NCBI GenBank assembly: GCA_964569935.1
Contig: CAZMWN010000002.1
Location: 1 to 37,756, forward strand
DNA from: an uncultured Pirellulales bacterium
GTDB taxonomy: Bacteria; Planctomycetota; Phycisphaerae; Sedimentisphaerales; Anaerobacaceae
Length of the DNA stretch: 37,756 nucleotides
Reading direction: 5' to 3'
The position numbers were made by a program, and so were the translations under genes. Shown here in pieces: positions 3,937 to 37,718 of the stretch. Under the pieces are notes generated by a model. The model searched no databases and was not told where the DNA came from. It was given only the letters and a program-made list of their open reading frames with translations. Position 1 is the stretch's first letter, and each line of letters starts with the position of its first letter.

Positions 3937-4140
3937 ACAGCGCCTCTTTAGGAGATACCGCTTATAAGATAAAAAATTGAGACACCTCAAACTTGCCATT
4001 TTAGGGAAAAGTTGGGCCTCTGACTACTGGGAAAGTTCAGTTAGTTGGGCGGGTTAGAAAACCCGCAAGGCGAGCCTCGCAAGAGACACCTCCCGAAATG
4101 TAGTGAAAACAATTTAATAACTATTTTTCAGGAGTATAAA

Positions 4141-5220
4141 ATGGCAACAAACGACATAACCACAATGGGCAACATGCTTGATATGATAAAGTTCAAGTTG
4201 CCCAACAACAAAGCAATCCAATCAATTGCGGCTACCTTGGCTGAACGTGATGCCTGGACTCGATTCACTCCTTCTCTTGCCGCCAATAGCGGAGTCAGTC
4301 ACACGATTTTGAAACAGATTTCCTTGCCTACTGGTTACCTGGTTGATGCCGGTGGGAGCTGGAAGGAATCAAAGGCCGAGTTCGAGCCTGACGTCCTGGG
4401 CATGTTCACGATACGTTCGACTTACCGTTCCAATCCCGATTATTTCAAGAACATGGCTCCGGAAGTCGCTTCGGTGCAATTGCGCGCCCAAAAGGCTTCT
4501 CACGTAATGGCTTTGATTCAGGGCAAAAGAAATTTAATGTTAAACGGCTCGACTGCTCCGAATCAGAGTTCCATAAGAGGACTAATGGAGATGGAATCTT
4601 ATGCGACATATGATGGTAAGTTCTGCTTCTCCGCTGGTGGTGCGGACACGAATACCGACCTTAGAAGTTGCTGGCTCGCCAAGCCGGGTGTGGATACCGT
4701 TTACGATATTCACAACAAGTTTCATCCGTCTATGGGCGTTGAAATGGATGACAAAGGCGAGCAGTTGATTACCGGCCTTGGAACGAGCAGTGACGAGCAC
4801 AGATACGACTTGTTCATTGAGTTCATGCTTCAATCGGGCTTCGTAGTCGAAGACCAGAGGGCTTTGAAAAGAATCTGCAACGTGGAATGTGGTACTACGG
4901 ACAATCCGGGACAATCTTTAATTGATGCGATTACGGATGCGAGCATTATCAACGCTCCGACCGGCGGGACCTTAATGTCTTATGACACCGAAGGCAATGT
5001 CGTTGAGGAATTACAAAGTCCCTGGATTCTTTACTGTCCCGAAAGGCTTTATTCCAAACTTGTGAAATCCCAGAATGACAAGTTGTTCGTCTATACATCA
5101 GAGGAAAACATATACAGGACGAAACTTCGCATGATAGGTGACGACATAATCATCGCAAGAATGGATGCCTTGAATCATGATTTGGGTTCCGGCGAAACTT
5201 ATATAAGCGCCGCTTCTTAA
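4141..5220 (+). CDS. major capsid protein
   Basis: 359 aa from ATG 4141, with AGGAG about 8 nt upstream. The track ORF starts at an upstream TTG (4045) inside a structured spacer, which I do not accept. It follows the scaffold gene and precedes a cement-like protein. Confidence 0.7.
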   Translation: MATNDITTMGNMLDMIKFKLPNNKAIQSIAATLAERDAWTRFTPSLAANSGVSHTILKQISLPTGYLVDAGGSWKESKAEFEPDVLGMFTIRSTYRSNPDYFKNMAPEVASVQLRAQKASHVMALIQGKRNLMLNGSTAPNQSSIRGLMEMESYATYDGKFCFSAGGADTNTDLRSCWLAKPGVDTVYDIHNKFHPSMGVEMDDKGEQLITGLGTSSDEHRYDLFIEFMLQSGFVVEDQRALKRICNVECGTTDNPGQSLIDAITDASIINAPTGGTLMSYDTEGNVVEELQSPWILYCPERLYSKLVKSQNDKLFVYTSEENIYRTKLRMIGDDIIIARMDALNHDLGSGETYISAAS

Positions 5221-5253
5221 AAACAAAGAAACATTTTATTAGGAGATACTTAG

Positions 5254-5769
5254 ATGATACTTGATAAATTAGGAGTGCTGTCAACTGCACAGGATTTGAC
5301 TAATGGTTCGACAGCCAGTGAAAACCAAATCAAAATGTCCGCTCGTGACTGGTCGCAAATCACTGATGCGTGGTTGGCGGTCGATTGTGAAACAGCCGCA
5401 GGTGGGGATACGGGGGACACTTTCAAATTCGAGCTTAGAGTTGCAACGTCAACTGCATTGACTACCCATAAGCAAGTCTGTTGTGTTGATATTACCAGTA
5501 ATGCAGACAGAAGACTTGCAACTGCGGGCAAGCCGATTGCCGGTATGAATATTGGAAAATCCCTTAAAAGCGCATGTCAGGCACTCATAGATGCTCAAAG
5601 CCTTGTGGATACGGACTTCATTTACGCCGGACTTTATACCACAATTAGTGCCGTCGGTACTATTTCGATTAACGCCGCTTTGAGTCCTCACGAGCCTCCG
5701 ACCGAAGACCACAGACAGGTAGTGGATTCCAACGTAGGTATTCCCGACAAATGCTCGGCTGCCTCTTAA
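5254..5769 (+). CDS. capsid cement/decoration protein, Bbp16-like (putative)
   Basis: 171 aa with AGGAG RBS. The N-terminus MILDKLGVLSTAQDLTNGSTASEN matches the pattern I recall for BPP-1 Bbp16-type cement proteins (MILD..l.fS.AQ.lT...). Sits immediately after the capsid gene. Confidence 0.45.
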   Translation: MILDKLGVLSTAQDLTNGSTASENQIKMSARDWSQITDAWLAVDCETAAGGDTGDTFKFELRVATSTALTTHKQVCCVDITSNADRRLATAGKPIAGMNIGKSLKSACQALIDAQSLVDTDFIYAGLYTTISAVGTISINAALSPHEPPTEDHRQVVDSNVGIPDKCSAAS

Positions 5770-5784
5770 CGAAAGGAGAATGAA

Positions 5785-8259
5785 ATGAAAAAAATAATAT
5801 TGTTTACATTGATTTTCGCCTTTCTGTGTGGAACGGCTCAGGCGGCAATGACATACGGTGCTTCTTATTATAAAGACCACATAAGCGAAGCTCGTACAGG
5901 CTCTTCTGTTGATCCGATATATTTGGCTTTTAACGAGCTGGATACGTTGCTTGCCGGTACGGACTCCGTTGACGCCATGTATTTCAATCCCACGACAGCG
6001 CCTTCCACACCATTGGAAGGCCAGCTTTATTACAACGCCGCAACGGACAACCTTGTATATCGCAACGCCTCGGCGTGGGTTACTCTTGCAACTTCTACTT
6101 CTGGTACTATGGACGAGACGTATAATCAGGGTTCTTCGATTGATGTCGATACAGATGCTGTTACCCTGACTACTTCGGATGGGGACGACAATGTCGTTCT
6201 CGCTATAGTTCAGAACGAGGCAACGAACGATAACGACGCTGTGACTATTACTATGGGCACGGGCGCTATCGGTAACGCCCTTCTAATTGACAGTGTAACG
6301 GACGGCAACGACGTTAAAGGCGATAACTGGGTTGTTACTCAGGCCGGAGCTTTGACCTGTGTTGGAGTTACGACTACCGGGGCGGTTACGATAAGCGCCG
6401 CCGATTTCACCTTCGATGATACCTACGATATTATGTGGGATACTTCAGAGGATACTTTAGTATTTAAGGACAATGCAGTTCTCGGTTTCGGTAATACGGG
6501 CGCTGCGCCGGACGTCGAGTTCAAGTGGAACACCTCTAATCTTTTAATAGAGTCGGCGGCTGAAGATACGGGCGAGATAGAAGTCGGGGCGACCAACGCT
6601 ATCGACCTCGTACTCCACGCCAATACCGCAGCCAGTGAGGTTGCTTTTAATGCTTCTACGGCTACGGCTGAATTCAACGGATACGACATTCAATTACAGG
6701 ATGCCGACCTTTTGATGTTCGGTGACGACGATGACTTTACCATTTTTAGCGATACCGAAACAGTTCTCGAATTTGACCCTAAAGTCGCTGGTAACGAGAT
6801 AAGGTTCGGTACAGCCTATACGGATGCCGTTGACATTACGTGGTATGGCGACCTTTCAGGAGATACGGTTACTTTTGATGAAGAATTATGCGAAGTCTTA
6901 TTTACCGATATTGACCTTCAACTTGACGATTCTGCTGATTTAATTTTTGGAACCGGCGATGATTTCGTTCTTGACTCCGATACGGCCAATACTCTTGACA
7001 TTATTAGTGCCGATACCGATGAAGCCGGTACTGTGAATTTCGGCAAGGATGCAAATGGTATTGACGTTGTTATGTGGGCTGCAACTTCCGGGAACAAAAT
7101 ATTCTGGGATTCTTCTGAAGGTGAAGTATTTTTTGAAGATGCCAATTTTGTTCTTAATGAAGGCTCAGATTTGAGATTTGAGGATTCGGGCGGTGCTACG
7201 GACTGGACCGTGGAATGCGATGGTGCAGAAGTTCTTGAATTCCTACCTACGGAAATTACCGACGACCAAGCGGTGCATTTCGGCGACGCCGACCATACAT
7301 CAGACCTCGTCTGGTACACTATGACTGCTTCATCGACTATCAATATCGACGCCTCTGAAGACTTGATGTATTTGGACGCCGTGGCTTTAAGAATCAACGA
7401 CGACGATGATTTATGGTTCGGTGATTCCAACGAGTTTATGATAGAATATGACGAAGACGGTACGGACAACTTGATTATCATTGCAAGTGTAGAAAACGAC
7501 GCAGTTCAGATAGGCGATGGTACTCACGCTACCGATTTTAAGATATTCTCGACCGGAGATGCCAGTGCGATTGTCAATTTTGATGCTTCCGCAGATACCG
7601 CAAACGGAGCATGGTTCTTCGGTGCGAGCGACCACGGAGTCGATGTTAATTTCTACGGCGCTACTGCAAGTCAGGAAGTTCAATGGGACCAATCCGCCGA
7701 TACGTGGTACTTCGGCAAAGACGCTGAAGGCGTGGACGTTTATTTCAATGCCAATACGACTGGTGATTACGTCTTGTGGGACGAAGGCGATGAGGACTTG
7801 AAGTTTGTAGGCGCAAATCTTGTTCTCGACGCCGATTCCGGGATAGAGAATCCGGTAGTTGTAGTTACTGACGCAGCGGAATATGACGTTACAGCCGCTA
7901 ATTCCGGCAAAGTCCACATCATTAAAGACTTGAGTCAGAATACCAGTATAGACCTTCCCGCCGAAGCTGCGGGGTTGTACTATGAATTCTGGTACTGCGG
8001 CGGTGCTGAAGAGGCTCACGACCATACCATCGACTCTGAGAATAATACCAACTACTTTATAGGCGGTGTTATTCACCATGACAATGATGACGGCTCTGTA
8101 GCTGCTGTTTCGAGTGATGGAAACAGCAATTCCAAGCTTACGTTAAGTGATGCAAGAGATGGTACAAGAGTCAAAGTTTCCTGTGACGGTTTGAACTGGT
8201 ACGTAACTGGAACGGTCAATAGTGATACTGCGCCTGCCTTTGCAGACCAGGCCGGATAA
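5785..8259 (+). CDS. acidic repeat protein, fibre/spike-like, with N-terminal signal peptide
   Basis: 824 aa with AAGGAG RBS. N-terminus is MKKIILFTLIFAFLCGTAQA/A. There are five to six degenerate repeats of roughly 110 aa (WD.S.D.L.F.D..L.FGD.DDF). Very Asp/Thr-rich. Confidence 0.7.
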   Translation: MKKIILFTLIFAFLCGTAQAAMTYGASYYKDHISEARTGSSVDPIYLAFNELDTLLAGTDSVDAMYFNPTTAPSTPLEGQLYYNAATDNLVYRNASAWVTLATSTSGTMDETYNQGSSIDVDTDAVTLTTSDGDDNVVLAIVQNEATNDNDAVTITMGTGAIGNALLIDSVTDGNDVKGDNWVVTQAGALTCVGVTTTGAVTISAADFTFDDTYDIMWDTSEDTLVFKDNAVLGFGNTGAAPDVEFKWNTSNLLIESAAEDTGEIEVGATNAIDLVLHANTAASEVAFNASTATAEFNGYDIQLQDADLLMFGDDDDFTIFSDTETVLEFDPKVAGNEIRFGTAYTDAVDITWYGDLSGDTVTFDEELCEVLFTDIDLQLDDSADLIFGTGDDFVLDSDTANTLDIISADTDEAGTVNFGKDANGIDVVMWAATSGNKIFWDSSEGEVFFEDANFVLNEGSDLRFEDSGGATDWTVECDGAEVLEFLPTEITDDQAVHFGDADHTSDLVWYTMTASSTINIDASEDLMYLDAVALRINDDDDLWFGDSNEFMIEYDEDGTDNLIIIASVENDAVQIGDGTHATDFKIFSTGDASAIVNFDASADTANGAWFFGASDHGVDVNFYGATASQEVQWDQSADTWYFGKDAEGVDVYFNANTTGDYVLWDEGDEDLKFVGANLVLDADSGIENPVVVVTDAAEYDVTAANSGKVHIIKDLSQNTSIDLPAEAAGLYYEFWYCGGAEEAHDHTIDSENNTNYFIGGVIHHDNDDGSVAAVSSDGNSNSKLTLSDARDGTRVKVSCDGLNWYVTGTVNSDTAPAFADQAG

Positions 8260-21290: not shown

Positions 21291-22841
21291 ATGAACATAT
21301 TTAGAGATTATACGGGACAGGAAGAGCAGGCAAAAGCCGAGTTCGGACGGACTTTATTCGATATAGGCTCAATGTTACTTTCTGAAACTATACGCAAAAA
21401 AGAGAGTGAAGAATACTCGAACGCTATAGGACGATTCATTTCAGAGTCAGAAGAATATTACGCATGGCAAAGAGAGAACGCCGACAAGCCGGAAGAATTC
21501 GTGAGCGAGATTGACAGTCGTAAAGACAGAATGTTATCGAACATTTTAAAGGACGTAAAGACTCCGGGCGCAAGAGATAAGATAATCAACAGGTTCAGTA
21601 TAGATTTCGAGCAAATTCGAGCGGGTGCAGCGGAGACGTCCTTTAGGCAATCACAAACGAACAAGGAACAGGCTTTCGACATTAACCTTACTAATGCAAT
21701 TGATATTCCCGCCGATACGCTTTTAACGGAATCGGTAGTGCAAAACCGCATAGACTCCGTTATAGAACTTATTGACGAAAACTACGGTGGCGTTCCAGAT
21801 TTAATGACGCCCGAACAACAGAAATTCATCGAAAATGAAGCCTTTCAATCAATAATAAGTCAGTACATTCTACAAAATGCCCAGAGTGTTGATGATATAG
21901 GCAAAGCCAACCAGATAGCCAGAGGGTTTGGCGTTGATCCCGTTTTCAATGCCAATGAGATTGTGAAATTAAGGTCAAGTTTTCAAGCTCAAATAAGAGC
22001 ACAACAGCGATTAGATGATGATGAATTGAAAAGAATTCATGGAGAAAATTCACGACAGCTTATTGCCGATTATTGGGATGGTAAATTAAACGATCCTCAA
22101 GTTGTAAGTGATGCTTTAAGGAATAACCTGATAGATGGAACGACTGCAAAGTATTTGTACAATGGATTGACTAAATCAAATCCAGACAAGCTTGATTTTA
22201 TCGCCTATCGTGAAGTCAAAGAATCGATTAATGATGTTGGTTTGGGTACTAAAACAGTAGATGAAGCCTATAAAGTTTTAATGAAAAATTCTTTGAAATT
22301 AGATAAGACAACTGGTAAGTCATTGGCGGCGGAGATTATAAGCGAGCACAATAAAGCCGACGAGGAAATGAAGCGAGAGGCACGTTCTTTAATGGAGGAA
22401 CTTATAAGAGAAAAAGACCCGTTAAGTGGTATGTTCAAAGATGACAAGTTGCAGATATTAGCTACCGCCGAAGCCGTTCTTACTCTTGATAAAGAACTTG
22501 AGAAAGCCGCCGAACAGGGAAAACCGTTGGAAAGGCGTGACATCTTGATAAAGGCTATGGAAGTTGGCAAAATGATAATCAAGCGCGAAAGGCTCGATGA
22601 AAAACAACCTACACCAGAAGGAGTAATAACTCATCAGATAAGCGAAAAACAACCGAATAGAGCAGGACAGACGGCTTACTCGATACCGAGCAATGTTCCG
22701 ATAGGTACTTATAATAAAGAAGGCTCGATAATCTTGAATGAACGTGGTGTTTTGTGGCTTAGGGATTACGCACGTAAAAACGGAATGACTATAGAGCAGG
22801 CGAGAAATTTCGCAAAAGAGAATAACTGGATAATACAATAA
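21291..22841 (+). CDS. internal virion protein (gp15-position, putative)
   Basis: 516 aa with a helical, charged composition. It lies between the 194-aa and 1368-aa genes. Confidence 0.4.
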   Translation: MNIFRDYTGQEEQAKAEFGRTLFDIGSMLLSETIRKKESEEYSNAIGRFISESEEYYAWQRENADKPEEFVSEIDSRKDRMLSNILKDVKTPGARDKIINRFSIDFEQIRAGAAETSFRQSQTNKEQAFDINLTNAIDIPADTLLTESVVQNRIDSVIELIDENYGGVPDLMTPEQQKFIENEAFQSIISQYILQNAQSVDDIGKANQIARGFGVDPVFNANEIVKLRSSFQAQIRAQQRLDDDELKRIHGENSRQLIADYWDGKLNDPQVVSDALRNNLIDGTTAKYLYNGLTKSNPDKLDFIAYREVKESINDVGLGTKTVDEAYKVLMKNSLKLDKTTGKSLAAEIISEHNKADEEMKREARSLMEELIREKDPLSGMFKDDKLQILATAEAVLTLDKELEKAAEQGKPLERRDILIKAMEVGKMIIKRERLDEKQPTPEGVITHQISEKQPNRAGQTAYSIPSNVPIGTYNKEGSIILNERGVLWLRDYARKNGMTIEQARNFAKENNWIIQ

Positions 22842-27625: not shown

Positions 27626-27654
27626 TTGACAAATTAAAGTTATTCCCGTAAAAT
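27626..27654 (+). promoter_or_regulatory. rightward early promoter
   Basis: TTGACA (27626-27631), a 17-nt spacer, then TAAAAT (27649-27654). Confidence 0.6.
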
Positions 27655-27810: not shown

Positions 27811-28683
27811 ATGAAAATTGCGTATATTAAAAAACGGTTTCATAGTGGTTCATTAGAAATAATTGACCACGCAAACGATATAATTGAGGAATATCAACAA
27901 GAAGATTACGACCTGACTTTGCGTCAATTGTATTATCAGTTTGTAGCACGGGATATAATTCAAAATAAGCAATCGGAATATAATAGGCTCGGTTCGATTA
28001 TAAATGATGCAAGGCTTGCAGGTTTAATAGATTGGGATAGTATAATTGACAGAACGAGAGAGTATGAGTCTTTGTCTCACTGGAACAGCCCGGCAGATAT
28101 TCTCAAATCAGCAGCAAAAAGTTATAATGTTAACACAAGGATAAACCAAAATTATTACATAGAAGTTTGGGTTGAAAAGGACGCTTTAGTTGGTGTTATT
28201 GAACAAGCATGTGACCCATTGGATGTGGGCTACTTATCTTGTCGTGGATATGTTTCTCAATCTGAAATGTGGCGTTCTGCACAAAGATTTAATCGTGCTA
28301 AGAATTGGCATAACTGTATTTTGTTACATTTTGGTGACCATGACCCTTCGGGCATAGACATGACCCGTGATATTGAAGATAGATTGAATCTCTTTGATGC
28401 TGAACTTGAAGTTTCAAGAATAGCTCTTACTATGGAACAAATAGAAGAATTCAATCCGCCACCAAATCCAGCAAAGACAACTGACAGTAGATACAATTCA
28501 TACATAAAAGCTTATGGAGAAGATTCTTGGGAATTGGATGCGCTTGACCCTCGAATCTTAACCAAACTGATTAATGAAAATGTGAATTATTATACAGAAA
28601 AGAAAAAACGAAATACTCTTATAAAAAAACAAGAACAAGAGAGAAAGCAAATATTTGAAATTGCAAATAAATTTATTCTCTAA
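27811..28683 (+). CDS. stand-alone Topo VI subunit A / Spo11-like protein (5Y-CAP + Toprim; Mini-A type)
   Basis: 290 aa with AAGGTG RBS. LTLRQLYYQFV (R38, Y41/Y42) fits the catalytic-tyrosine motif. IEVWVEKDAL (E122) and HFGDHDPSGIDM (D176, D178) fit the Toprim acidic motifs. Confidence 0.6.
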   Translation: MKIAYIKKRFHSGSLEIIDHANDIIEEYQQEDYDLTLRQLYYQFVARDIIQNKQSEYNRLGSIINDARLAGLIDWDSIIDRTREYESLSHWNSPADILKSAAKSYNVNTRINQNYYIEVWVEKDALVGVIEQACDPLDVGYLSCRGYVSQSEMWRSAQRFNRAKNWHNCILLHFGDHDPSGIDMTRDIEDRLNLFDAELEVSRIALTMEQIEEFNPPPNPAKTTDSRYNSYIKAYGEDSWELDALDPRILTKLINENVNYYTEKKKRNTLIKKQEQERKQIFEIANKFIL

Positions 28684-29679: not shown

Positions 29680-30000
29680 ATGGACAATACACTAAATATT
29701 CTTCCAGGTCAAGATGAAATAAGAACAATAACTCAAAAGCGTTTACGTAGAAAATGTGAATTTTGTGGAGAAGAAGCACATTACAAGCATACTTGGTTAC
29801 TAAAAGGTACACGTTCTAATCCAGCGAGCAAAGCCTATAGAAGGGATGATTGTTCTTGGTGTGAAGATAGTTGTACTTTCACGTGCCGAAAATGTAAAAA
29901 TAAAGCGAGGCCACCGGAAGGTTATGTTGATTGTAGTATATTTCCTGCTTCGGAAACATTTTCTCACATTTTTTTATTTTGGGTAACAATTGAAAAATAA
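29680..30000 (+). CDS. Cys-rich (zinc-binding?) protein
   Basis: 106 aa with several Cys pairs (CEFC, CSWCEDSC, CRKC). Confidence 0.5.
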   Translation: MDNTLNILPGQDEIRTITQKRLRRKCEFCGEEAHYKHTWLLKGTRSNPASKAYRRDDCSWCEDSCTFTCRKCKNKARPPEGYVDCSIFPASETFSHIFLFWVTIEK

Positions 30001-30034
30001 ATAAATAGCTCTCATACAAGTAAATAGAGAAAAA

Positions 30035-30918
30035 CCGAAGTCCTGTGTCGGCGTGGTAGCGTCGGGTTGGGTTGATACGCAAACAGGAACCCATAGGAAC
30101 CTTGAACTACTAATAAAGAGGATTCCGTTCCAGATGTTTATGGTGGCGCAGGGTGGGGAATCCTGCACACAGGGCTTCGGTTTGTCGAAGTCGTGGCAGC
30201 GGGACGGCTATGTGCAATGGAGAAAATGCCCGCAAGGGAACTCATTATGAACCTGAGCAGACAGAGGTCAGGGAGAGTTACACGGAGGGGCACACATGCA
30301 AAGAGCGCAAAGCTTTGCCGCTGCCCACTTCTTCGGCAAATTATAGGGCAGGGCAAGCACATAAACTGTTAATCGAGTCCATTGATTTCAACTCTACCTA
30401 CGCCCTGCCTTTTAGAAAAAAAGTCGGCAATGGCGTGTATGTGGAAATGGCGAACCAGTTCAGAATGTAACCTAAAACAGTACACGGCTCAGAATTGCTT
30501 GATTGTCGGTCGAAAGCGGCCTGAGATAATAGCCGGATAAAACTTAGGCGTCCAGCAGGGACAACAATAACGCACGGCGACACATTACAACCTGTTGAAG
30601 GGTCAATTCTATTGCCGACTTTCTGAAATATGCCAGCGGCTGACAAGTTTGTCCCAAACTCTCCGTCCTATTTTATATGTGGCCACGACAAGTTGTGGCT
30701 TGCACTCAGACACGGATCAGTTACAAGCTGGCTGGCTTTTTATAGACCTGCAGCAATATAGGCAGATACAGAAACCAGCAGAAATGCGGACACCGGAAAC
30801 GCTTATGCTTGCAGGTCTTTTATAGAAGACATCACCCTCTCCTCCTTTGAGAGGCCAGGCGTAATGCTTGGCTGGCGACTGTGGCCATGGATGGTCAATT
30901 GGCCACTTTCGCTTTTTT
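30035..30918 (+). ncRNA. candidate giant structured ncRNA (GOLLD/ROOL-like class or novel); boundaries approximate
   Basis: About 0.9 kb with no credible ORF, only short overlapping ORFs on both strands and no RBS. It looks G+C-richer than the flanks by eye. It has many hairpins and long-range complementarities, including a perfect 12-mer pair (30420-30431 with 30611-30622). It ends in a terminator-like hairpin and a tRNA-like element follows 14 nt later. Confidence 0.55.
30881..30918 (+). terminator. terminator-like hairpin at the 3' end of the ncRNA candidate
   Basis: gtggcca (30881-30887) pairs with tggccac (30900-30906) around a 12-nt loop. The T-rich tail tttcgctttttt follows. Confidence 0.55.
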
Positions 30919-30932
30919 GAAAAGTTAATATT

Positions 30933-31054
30933 CCGGGTATAGCTCAGTCAGGTAGAGCACCGACCTCGCGGTCGGAGGGCGTGGCCGTAACCAATCGGGA
31001 CATAGTCAATAGCTTAAGATGTTGTCTATGGAGGTTCGAATCCCACTGCCCGGC
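30933..31054 (+). tRNA. tRNA-like element: cloverleaf interrupted by a 49-nt insert in the T stem, 6-nt anticodon loop (possibly pseudo or a processing handle)
   Basis: Acceptor stem ccgggta/tgcccgg. D arm gctc-agtcaggta-gagc. Anticodon arm ccgac-ctcgcg-gtcgg. Variable loop agggc. The T arm gtgg[49 nt]g-ttcgaat-cccac is perfect only if 30985-31033 is removed. No CCA is encoded. Confidence 0.45.
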
Positions 31055-31069
31055 TTTGAAAGGAATAAC

Positions 31070-31306
31070 ATGACAAGAGTAAAGATAAAAAAAGATTCAG
31101 AAAATCCTGAAAGTGTTGAATTATTAGCAAAGAGTGTGATTCAAGTTGCGGAAGGATTTGAAAAGTTAAAAGATGTAAAATTAACAAATAGAGCAATAGC
31201 AGTTCTTCTTCAAGACGGTATAGGTTCTACAAAAATAACAAAAAAACAAATATATCTTGTTCTTGATGCTTTGCCACAATTAAAAGCATGGTATATAAAA
31301 AAATAA
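31070..31306 (+). CDS. hypothetical protein
   Basis: 78 aa from ATG 31070, with AAAGGA upstream. The track ORF start at 31019 would overlap the tRNA-like element. Confidence 0.55.
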   Translation: MTRVKIKKDSENPESVELLAKSVIQVAEGFEKLKDVKLTNRAIAVLLQDGIGSTKITKKQIYLVLDALPQLKAWYIKK

Positions 31307-37254: not shown

Positions 37255-37406
37255 TGTTGAATTTACAGCTTAAAAAGAATCAATGGATTGTATTTAAGAA
37301 CAGCAAAGATGGCACTATCATTAAAATAAAGAGGCATGAATCACAATACAGACTTGCCATTGATGCTCCCAGGCACATTGAGATAAGCCGAGAAATAATA
37401 AAATAA
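37254..37406 (+). CDS. csrA: CsrA-family RNA-binding protein (short form)
   Basis: 50 aa read by hand: MLNLQLKKNQWIVFKNSKDGTIIKIKRHESQYRLAIDAPRHIEISREIIK. YRLAIDAPRHIEISREII parallels VKLGIDAPKHIDIHRKEIY of B. subtilis CsrA. TAATG coupling to the previous gene. Confidence 0.6.
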   Translation: MLNLQLKKNQWIVFKNSKDGTIIKIKRHESQYRLAIDAPRHIEISREIIK

Positions 37407-37442
37407 TGGCATTAAATCACTTGACGCACCAAAGGAGTAAAT

Positions 37443-37673
37443 ATGAGTGATATAAACAGGGAAGAAGAAAGATTTATGGATGATGAACCATTATTTGGCG
37501 AAGAGCCTTCCTGTCATTATTGCCTTGGGGAAGGTTATATTTATTTAGATATGGATATGATAGACGACCCAATAAATATGTGCGATTGGGCAAGCGGCGT
37601 CGAATTAGGTGATATTGTCAAATGTACTTGTTGTGGTGGAAGTGGGTTAGCAAAAGACTGTAAATGGTGGTGA
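37443..37673 (+). CDS. small protein with two DnaJ-type CxxCxGxG zinc-finger motifs
   Basis: 76 aa with AAGGAG RBS. The motifs are CHYCLGEG and CTCCGGSG. Confidence 0.6.
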   Translation: MSDINREEERFMDDEPLFGEEPSCHYCLGEGYIYLDMDMIDDPINMCDWASGVELGDIVKCTCCGGSGLAKDCKWW

Positions 37674-37718
37674 GTGAAGTATATCAATGCCTTTTTTTTG
37701 CCCAGTAAAGGAGTAAAA

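Follow-up and report, generated by a model that had tools for sequence, protein, structure and literature searches.

A modular structured RNA region of a tailed-phage contig is headed by a predicted member of a widespread phage RNA family

The window analysed here comprises 37,756 nucleotides (nt) of contig CAZMWN010000002.1 (assembly GCA_964569935.1, deposited as an uncultured Pirellulales bacterium). It is a tailed-phage contig, which encodes portal/adaptor-like, major-head-like, tail, Erf-like annealing, RecE-like exonuclease and topoisomerase-primase-like proteins. Positions 30004-30918, in the following termed the island, are a non-coding, modular structured RNA region that is specific for the (+) strand. 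The island consists of seven to nine independently stem-closed RNA modules. The most upstream of these, module A, is, as judged from sequence comparison, a bona fide member of a conserved and widespread phage RNA family outside Rfam 15, which we designate family A. A sequence-only reading of the same DNA had proposed a non-coding structured (+) strand RNA in a phage, adjoined by a tRNA-like element, and this proposal was supported by the analysis.

The G+C content of the island, which had been noted by eye as higher than that of its flanks, is 0.455-0.535 compared to 0.33-0.39. The six overlapping open reading frames (ORFs) previously listed on both strands are present, and there is no credible ORF in 30004-30918. 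A protein-coding signature was found neither by a Pfam search of the six frames of the island (no match at E<=1) nor by a search for ORF homologues: the longest ORF (30153-30470, 105 amino acids (aa)) matched only itself among 5.8 billion proteins. A PHROGs search of the island gave no match either. A phase-specific Markov coding score was negative over most of the island and close to neutral at 30120-30280. The power of this score is low, since the small neighbouring genes score weakly as well. On the basis of the six-frame Pfam search and the coding potential, a protein-coding or pseudogene origin of the island was rejected.

Folding of 906 nt of the (+) strand yielded a minimum free energy (MFE) of -318.8 kcal/mol, which corresponds to z = -5.09; none of 60 dinucleotide shuffles was as good. 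The (-) strand of the island reached z = -2.17, and the flanking 900-nt controls gave +0.6 and -0.5. A separate estimate from 20 shuffles yielded z = -7.18 for the (+) and -1.84 for the (-) strand. In a sliding scan with 200-nt segments, 30001-30200 (z = -5.6) and 30841-31040 (z = -5.7) were among the five most negative of 313 (+) strand segments. The hairpins that had been read from the sequence are present at 30229-30238 (ccc-gcaa-ggg), 30508-30521 (ggtcg-aaag-cggcc, with one G-U pair), 30682-30699 (gccacga-caag-ttgtggc) and 30836-30854 (cctctc/gagagg). The perfect 12-mer pair 30420-30431 / 30611-30622 was recovered by a repeat finder. By our own estimate, about 0.04 perfect 12-mer inverted repeats are expected per 1.15 kb, in agreement with the earlier judgement that this pair is unlikely by chance. 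Among the shorter pairs, which we agree are not significant individually, the 10-bp bulged helix was recovered as 30195-30215 / 30305-30325 and one 8-bp pair as 30342-30354 / 30402-30414; the 9-bp pair 30744-30752 / 30810-30818 and the 8-bp pair AGGATTCC/GGAATCCT (30119-30126 / 30157-30164) are present. The strongest helix had been overlooked. It is 20 nt long and 90% complementary, joins 30029-30048 with 30167-30186, and spans the closing stem of module A.

Family A is a multi-stem junction. Its stem P1 consists of 7 bp of free but complementary sequence and is often extended. The P2 hairpin YGGCGU-N4-GCGYCR directly abuts the 5' strand of P1 and is followed by the junction strand GGUAAG. The peripheral middle part is variable (40 to 110 nt), and the P4 hairpin GC(A/C)GGGU-GGGGA-AUCC(U/G)GC directly abuts the 3' strand of P1. 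The copies collected (at least 47) are 95-191 nt long, with a median of 127 nt. Module A occupies 30029-30186 of the (+) strand, with its core at 30042-30173, and folds with z = -4.9 (+) / -3.4 (-). Its P1 (30032-30048 / 30167-30183) is composed of seven junction-proximal pairs (30042-30048 / 30167-30173), CCUGUGU/ACACAGG, all of which are paired, and a 10-bp extension, giving 17 bp in total. P2 (30049-30054 / 30059-30064) reads CGGCGU-GGUA-GCGUCG with the loop GGUA. P4 is the exact sequence GCAGGGUGGGGAAUCCUGC at 30148-30166, with the stem 30148-30154 / 30160-30166 and the loop GGGGA.

The relatives of module A were found in several ways. A covariance model built from the window copy only (R1) gave a full-length match in an intergenic spacer of locus L092 (19 bits, E 0.077 in 0.94 Mb). 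Synteny via the 106-aa gene that precedes the island pointed to an array in locus L170, which by eye begins with the same element. The copies from the window, L170 and L092 have in common CGGCGUG right after the 7-bp stem strand and AAUCC(U/G)GC right before the complementary strand. The stem itself differs between the three by compensated changes (CCUGUGU/ACACAGG, CUGGUGG/CCACCAG and CCUGGGG/CCCCAGG). A scan of viral contigs with the P4 pattern GCAGGNNGGGGN{0,14}AATCCTGC yielded at least 120 matches; the family is larger than sampled. Among the matches listed are 22 loci with an ungapped 19-mer, and for 21 of these 22 listed loci a perfect complement of the following 7 nt lies within 260 nt upstream, for which we estimate a chance of about 0.23 each. 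In most of the 21 loci this complement directly precedes YGGCGU-N4-GCGYC and GGUAAG, elements that were not used in the selection.

Twenty-five copies were aligned with MAFFT without fitting to a model (A7), and this alignment, scored with P1, P2 and P4, served to build a second model, R2. Within A7, 92.2% of the cells are paired and 13 of the 20 pairs have changed on both sides. The covariation score is 0.476, compared to 0.140 for shuffled alignments (none of 500 reaches 0.476) and 0.06-0.13 for slid partners. All six pairs of P2, which had no part in the selection, covary. Covariation among homologues, which had been proposed as a check of the structure, is strong for family A, also in the second set of copies described below. 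Conserved wobble pairs occur in P2 (U-G, 18 of 25 copies) and in P4 (G-U, 21 of 25), and the matches of R2 fall on one strand only. These wobble pairs and the single-strand matches demonstrate selection of the element as an RNA of this strand. The window copy, which belongs to the training set of R2, scores 87.4 bits (E 1e-14), the second-best of 26 matches.

A second scan relied on the 5' motif only (GGCGTNNNNGCGYCNGGTAAG) and gave 52 loci, 50 of which were new. R2 matched 26 sites in the 50, 21 of them distinct. In this second set 98% of P1 is paired, with compensatory changes at all seven pairs; across both sets 95-98% of the P1 cells are paired. P4 exchanges GCAGG/CCUGC for GCCGG/CCGGC and, more rarely, contains ACAGG/CCUGU, GUCGG/CCGAU or CCCGG/CCGGG, around a nearly invariant loop segment GUGGGGAAU. 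Some candidates were discarded. L104:9232-9359 contains a canonical T-arm-like hairpin but is not matched by R2. Several matches of a descriptor with one mismatch were rejected as members, since controls reached about half the observed rate.

The at least 47 copies originate from uncultivated phage contigs with a G+C content of 0.32-0.65. A ribosome-binding site (RBS) and the start codon of an ORF of at least 40 aa follow within 60 nt in 20 of the 47 copies, and a T-run within 20 nt past P1 in 16 of them. P1 is extended by at least 3 bp in 28 of the 47. The family stands free, at 95-190 nt and without the remaining modules of the island, in about 45-47 other phage contigs. L302 and L304 carry two copies each. 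The window carries a single one, and between it and the next gene at 31070 lie about 730 nt of additional structure, a terminator and the tRNA-like element. The copy in L219 (4872-5039), a viral contig of 145 kb, ends 11 nt before an array of ten tRNAs on the same strand (5050-7872).

The window was compared with all 4227 models of Rfam 15 by cmscan, as a whole at gathering thresholds and for 29900-31150 at E<=10 with permissive filters. In 29900-31150, only a tRNA match and two meaningless eukaryotic matches were obtained. Membership in the GOLLD or ROOL class, which had been suggested for the island, was not borne out, as neither RF01998 nor RF03087 matched at the gathering threshold or at E<=10. 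The models of group I (RF00028) and group II (RF00029) introns, RNase P and tmRNA likewise gave no match at E<=10, and ARAGORN found no tmRNA in the window. The gene upstream of the island is not a split exon, since it has full length relative to its homologues. Rfam scans of L170, L004, L092, L104 and eight family-bearing loci assigned the element to no family and returned only manA (RF01745) below threshold. The family is apparently uncatalogued as judged by Rfam 15, and its motif sequence was found in no searchable paper. The 8,495 candidate structured RNAs (csRNAs) of DNA viruses that were mined from IMG/VR (Fremin et al. 2023, PMC10690425) have the same data source as family A and may include it; they, too, are covarying motifs between phage genes, and many are tRNA-like or directly precede a gene. 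One locus related to the window via the topoisomerase-primase-like gene contains a type II hammerhead ribozyme (L159:3472-3540, RF02276, 55.7 bits).

The nearest catalogued relative of family A is manA, matched below threshold only, and we treat the family as its distant variant or sister. The manA motif was published in 2010 (Weinberg et al., PMC2864571) and is still an orphan riboswitch candidate; it occurs in marine cyanophages and gamma-proteobacteria. It is described as a probable cis-regulatory RNA, possibly a riboswitch, of marine cyanophages (PMC2864571) and lies upstream of assorted metabolic and photosynthesis genes (PMC2864571; PMC9964418). RF01745 recognised the family-A copy of L266 with 18.5 bits (E 1.6; gathering score 55.2). 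In the same scan of eight family-bearing loci, it did not match six other copies at E<=10, and it did not match the window copy at E<=10 either. A manA-type RNA at L335:6743-6919 (50.9 bits, E 3.6e-10) likewise remains under the gathering score. An RBS and an ATG follow it at a distance of about 20 nt, and the same contig carries a family-A copy (766-890). This RNA comprises a 7-bp P1 (GGGGCUG/CAGCCCC), an early hairpin with the AAGGUA-type junction strand UAAGGUA behind it, and, abutting the 3' strand of P1, the terminal hairpin GCAGG-UAUGCAAAAAU-CCUGC. R2 aligned with this RNA from end to end (16.4 bits, E 0.002 in 451 nt). Recognition is thus weak and reciprocal. The layout of P1 and the terminal GCAGG..AAUCCUGC that family A shares is that of this near-threshold RNA. 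Furthermore, both families are phage-borne, strand-specific, multi-stem and closed by P1, and both often occur in the 5' untranslated regions (UTRs) of assorted phage genes; the window copy itself is not located in the 5' UTR of a gene. In contrast to manA, family A is shorter (median 127 nt versus a model of 192 positions) and has its own invariant P2 (YGGCGU/GCGYCR) and P4 loop GGGGA. It stems from sediment, soil and other non-marine viromes of G+C 0.32-0.65, and its downstream genes are small unrelated phage ORFs rather than mannose, nucleotide or photosynthesis genes. A BLAST search of the whole region, module A and the L335 RNA against GenBank phages returned only chance matches of 20 nt.

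All further modules of the island lie on the (+) strand and are each closed by their own stem, with U/A-rich linkers in between. Module B (30187-30336; MFE fold, z = -3.4 (+) / -1.9 (-)) is closed by GUGGCAGCGG / CCGCUGCC-CAC and contains the GCAA-capped inner hairpin 30229-30238; modules A and B jointly reach z = -6.8 (+) / -2.7 (-). Module C (30345-30412; z = -3.4 / -2.9) is a G+C-rich stem of 10 bp, GGGCAGGGC / GCCCUGCC, followed by UUUUAGAAAAAAAG. Module D (30420-30622; z = -2.5 / -1.4) is closed by the perfect 12-mer AAAGUCGGCAAU / AUUGCCGACUUU and followed by UUUCUGAAAU. Module E (30633-30742; z = -0.7 / -0.3) is weakly structured and holds the GCCACGA-CAAG-UUGUGGC hairpin at 30682-30699. 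Module F (30744-30818; z = -4.1 / -3.6) is closed by AGACCUGCA / UGCAGGUCU and followed by UUUUAUAG. Module G (30836-30918; z = -4.1 / -3.0) comprises three terminal hairpins at 30836-30854, 30855-30872 and 30875-30912. Four modules carry U-run tails: C (GCCCUGCC-UUUUAG), D (...GACUUUCUG), F (UGCAGGUC-UUUUAU) and G (terminator plus U6). The 3' end of the island had been read as a 7-bp hairpin with a T tract. It is indeed intrinsic-terminator-like and consists of the 7-bp hairpin GUGGCCA/UGGCCAC with a GCGA/UCGC extension and T6 at 30912-30917.

Modules B to G are, by sequence comparison, lineage-specific. With nhmmer at E<=1, neither these modules nor the tRNA-like element had a homologue in 3.1 Mb of related and family-bearing loci. 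An exact-pattern scan with a 24-mer from module D gave no match, and a pattern bridging A and B matched only G+C-rich coding sequence by chance. Synteny via the topoisomerase-primase-like gene (27811-28683) provided 160 loci (2 Mb), in which nhmmer and blastn detected no relative of the island. The large gaps in these loci that are rich in G+C and free of ORFs are mostly unstructured (L123, z = +1.7; L135, z = -3.1) and can serve as negative controls. Among eight contigs with a homologue of the 106-aa protein, only L170 has a large ORF-free array, and the gaps in L172 and L169 are unstructured.

The array in L170 (6506-7186) spans 680 nt without an ORF, follows the 106-aa homologue and a 60-aa gene, and folds with z = -8.9 (+) / -3.9 (-). 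It starts with a family-A copy. Its modules, about six in number, are closed by stems, and behind each of them lie a U-run and GA(A/G)AA. L170 and the window region share 92 seven-mers, compared to 44.8 expected and a maximum of 67 in shuffles, and they are connected by a loosely collinear chain (CGGCGTGGT, AATCCTGC, TTGCCGCTG, GCTGGCTTTT, CCTCTCCTC, TTTTGAAAAGT). The strands of module B resemble those of L170 module 2 (GGCRGCGGGAYGG ... UUGCCGCUG); this likeness was not counted as covariation because the strands pair in a different register. Near-identical copies of L170 module 1 occur in L205 with a different sequence downstream, which argues that the modules behave as separable units.

The tRNA-like element that had been noticed behind the island begins about 15 nt past the terminator T-tract. 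It is an aberrant one on the (+) strand (30933-31054), and scores 34.2 bits with the Rfam tRNA model RF00005 (gathering score 29). It has a 51-nt insertion in the variable region, between anticodon arm and T arm, and two mismatched T-stem pairs. ARAGORN made no tRNA call for it, and its fold has z = -1.4. Its anticodon loop has the sequence CUCGCGG (anticodon CGC) and G3-U70 is absent; the anticodon arm can alternatively form a stem of 6 bp capped by a UCGC tetraloop. None of 185,579 representative genomes contains the exact 5' half or the exact 3' half of the element. The 19-nt flank TTTTTTGAAAAGTTAATAT that precedes it is identical to that in front of the family-A copy of L266, a contig that has no gene in common with the window. 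The last module of L170 is located behind TTTTGAAAAGTGAA and before an RBS, just as the tRNA-like element is located behind TTTTGAAAAGTTAA, and in L004 the same slot is occupied by a compact family-A copy. Altogether, the AT-rich flank TTTT(TT)GAAAAGT(T/G)AA(T/C)A (window 30912-30930; L266:2178-2196; L170:7046-7059; L004:11923-11936) stands before the last structured module ahead of a gene in four unrelated or distant phages. It may be a terminator tail combined with a regulatory or processing signal.

With regard to function, we tentatively prefer a model in which the island is a cis-acting structured leader or attenuator with module A, from a family distantly like manA, at its head. Transcription would start at a promoter such as that at 27626 and run through the upstream early genes into the island, which would serve the operon starting at 31070 as a long, structured, cis-acting leader or attenuator. 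Module A would be a sensor or factor-binding module, whose conserved junction and loop nucleotides could make up the binding pocket of a ligand or of a conserved host factor. Stems C, D, F and G with their U tails might serve as successive pause or termination points, and lineage-specific modules would have been added by accretion. This model is favoured because family-A copies often lie just upstream of start codons, because U-runs occur past P1, because manA is a precedent, and because of the chain of U-tailed stems. It is also favoured by the promoters. The promoter-like site at 27626 matches in 11 of 12 positions and none as good lies nearer to the island, in line with the earlier remark that the island has no convincing promoter of its own.

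Several observations weigh against the leader model or against the evidence on which it draws. The selection of the copies accounts for the invariance of P4 in the first set and for some of the pairing signal of P1. The independence of the second set is partial, because its alignment was fitted to R2 and R2 rewards pairing in P1 and P4. The junction of the window copy (30065-30070, GGUUGG) matches the GGUAAG of most members in four of six positions. Modules B to G, and with them two thirds of the island, are predicted from thermodynamics, and module E folds no better than shuffled sequences. About half of the family-A copies have no gene start nearby, as judged by a crude criterion, and the window copy is about 900 nt away from the next gene. 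The downstream genes are mutually unrelated, so that no shared one was found, and no protein family occurs within 4 kb in more than three of 45 loci. The absence of a link to a neighbouring or downstream gene is unusual for a metabolite riboswitch. The position of the L219 copy before a tRNA array and those of the window and L170 copies at the head of arrays fit a stable or processed RNA equally well.

Such a processed RNA is the content of a second model, which we consider somewhat unlikely. The island would be a precursor array of small, stable, trans-acting RNAs that are cut by host RNases (P, Z, E or III) at the AU-rich linkers, and module A would be a tRNA-shaped mimic. We regard phage tRNA clusters and, within the tRNA region of T4, the stable RNAs C and D as analogues. 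Closure of every module by its own stem, U/A-rich linkers and the missing conserved neighbouring gene are consistent with this model, as is the occurrence of family A alone, twice per contig (L302, L304) and ahead of the ten tRNAs of L219. The final slot is taken by an element above the Rfam tRNA threshold, and the L266 family-A copy stands behind the same flank TTTTTTGAAAAGTTAATAT as this element; interchangeability of family A with a tRNA-like element likewise favours this model. Within module A, P1 and P4 (7 + 7 bp) abut without a linker, like acceptor and T arms. Moreover, the P4 loop ends with GAAU-CC like a T loop, and the P2 loop is often GGUA, like the end of a D loop. However, module A has no anticodon arm or anticodon-like loop and no encoded CCA, and its P1 usually exceeds 7 bp. 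Neither the Rfam tRNA model (E<=10) nor ARAGORN recognises it or its relatives, and many copies are located, leader-like, just upstream of an RBS.

The new large phage RNA that had been suggested as an alternative to a known class would be a single fold of about 0.9 kb, possibly multimeric, with module A as its conserved core. We regard this as conceivable and improbable. The island shares with GOLLD and ROOL a phage origin, a size of several hundred nt without ORFs, an adjoining tRNA or tRNA-like gene and the lack of an evident partner protein (PMC12286853); GOLLD is a homo-oligomeric, RNA-only cage (D7 14-mer) and ROOL a nanocage (PMC12286853). A division into a conserved and a variable half is likewise found in GOLLD, whose 3' domain is universally conserved. 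The whole-region z of -5.1 and the 680-nt array of L170 (z = -8.9), with its same first module and 92 shared 7-mers, also argue in this direction. Yet the comparative evidence covers only the first ~130-160 nt, the conserved part of about 130 nt stands free in about 45 other contigs, and neither covariance model matches. The only candidate for pairing between modules (30044-30055 / 30573-30584) competes with P1 and P2, and by our own estimate a pairing as good is expected about 1.5 times by chance. Because module A is self-contained elsewhere and the other modules are stem-closed and lack homologues in the 3.1 Mb searched, the evidence favours a description as a modular array or leader. We consider it quite improbable that module A and its family represent a new class of self-cleaving ribozymes which process phage transcripts, with the rest of the island being an unrelated structured spacer. 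The intergenic, sometimes multicopy occurrence without a bound gene family or partner protein would be compatible with a ribozyme, as would the multi-stem junction with few invariant nucleotides and a variable peripheral stem, and the hammerhead in the related locus L159 is a case in point. However, no ribozyme family of Rfam is similar, the sequence offers no readable signature of a cleavage site, and the weak similarity to manA speaks for a regulatory aptamer instead. Very improbable is the interpretation that there is no RNA element and that the island is coding DNA of higher G+C content that has decayed or was acquired horizontally (a pseudogene or moron), or an origin, attP site or cruciform. 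It would account for the jump in G+C, the flanking near-repeat TTGAAAAATAAATA / TTGAAAAGTTAATA, the absence of the segment from most relatives, the four independent short assemblies that break inside it, and the near-neutral coding score of the 105-aa ORF. It is contradicted by the lack of any six-frame protein similarity and of a homologue of the longest ORF, by the strand asymmetry of the folding signal, and by the absence of iterons and of an AT-rich unwinding element. For module A it is largely refuted, as neither coding nor duplex DNA explains the compensatory changes and conserved G-U pairs.

A broader reading, which we regard as unlikely, concerns family A as a whole. With roughly 50 or more relatives it might be a new phage RNA class, distantly related to manA and with a defined biochemical activity, and the window and L170 would contain kilobase non-coding RNAs built, in a manner not described before, by stringing lineage-specific modules behind it. 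Candidate activities would be those of a riboswitch or host-factor sensor, a mimic of the tRNA elbow or of a tRNA-processing substrate, and a self-cleaving ribozyme. The family adds to the poorly catalogued non-coding RNAs of phages a compact covarying motif from diverse G+C contents and habitats, with near-invariant GGGGA and GGUAAG and no partner gene. Comparison across the sub-threshold link to manA could reveal the nucleotides of a shared core. The module chains of 0.7-0.9 kb in the window and L170, both headed by family A, provide a test bed for the modular accretion of large phage RNAs. Should the island fold or multimerise as a single particle, the large ornate phage RNAs would gain a third kind next to GOLLD and ROOL, for which, to our knowledge, no function has been found so far.

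The island is preceded by a (+) strand gene for a Cys-rich protein of 106 aa (29680-30000), which has 18 homologues with 48-73% identity and served as the synteny anchor to L170. The protein contains several CxxC-like pairs and belongs to no Pfam or PHROG family. Its gene occurs in very different contexts in the eight sampled homologue loci and looks like a small mobile phage gene. The next downstream gene, also on the (+) strand (31070-31306), codes for 78 aa and has an AAGGA RBS at 31060-31064. The island is bracketed by the near-repeat TTGAAAAATAAATA / TTGAAAAGTTAATA at 29990-30003 and 30917-30930, with a spacing of 927 nt. This could reflect insertion of the island as a unit; the repeat is AT-rich and could also be due to chance.

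Look-ups of contigs by exact protein matches retrieved only short contigs of identical sequence, from other samples or assemblies. All four of them end or start within the island or the tRNA-like region: L001 at about 30045, L002 and L003 at about 30422, and L167 at 31004. Two independent ones among them (Logan SRR9694931 and JGI 3300031575) terminate on an identical base where modules C and D meet. These breaks suggest either population-level variation or repeated modules that interrupt assembly graphs.

The motif TTTGAAAA was found 10 times in the window versus 5.8 expected and is not enriched. The window and L264, a contig that carries family A, share AAATCACTTG(A/G)C(G/T)CACCAAAGGAGTAAA (37405-37452 and L264:7499-7545, respectively) as well as GGTGAGTGAAGTATATCAATGCC (37668-37691 and L264:6992-7015, respectively). 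These shared intergenic or gene-junction sequences hint at mosaic relatedness or shared regulatory sites. Other strongly negative segments in the 200-nt scan of the (+) strand are 1-200 (z = -5.8), 3961-4280 (-4.6 and -5.2), which spans the gap before the major-head-like gene, and 21481-21680 (-4.9), which lies inside a gene for 516 aa (21291-22841).

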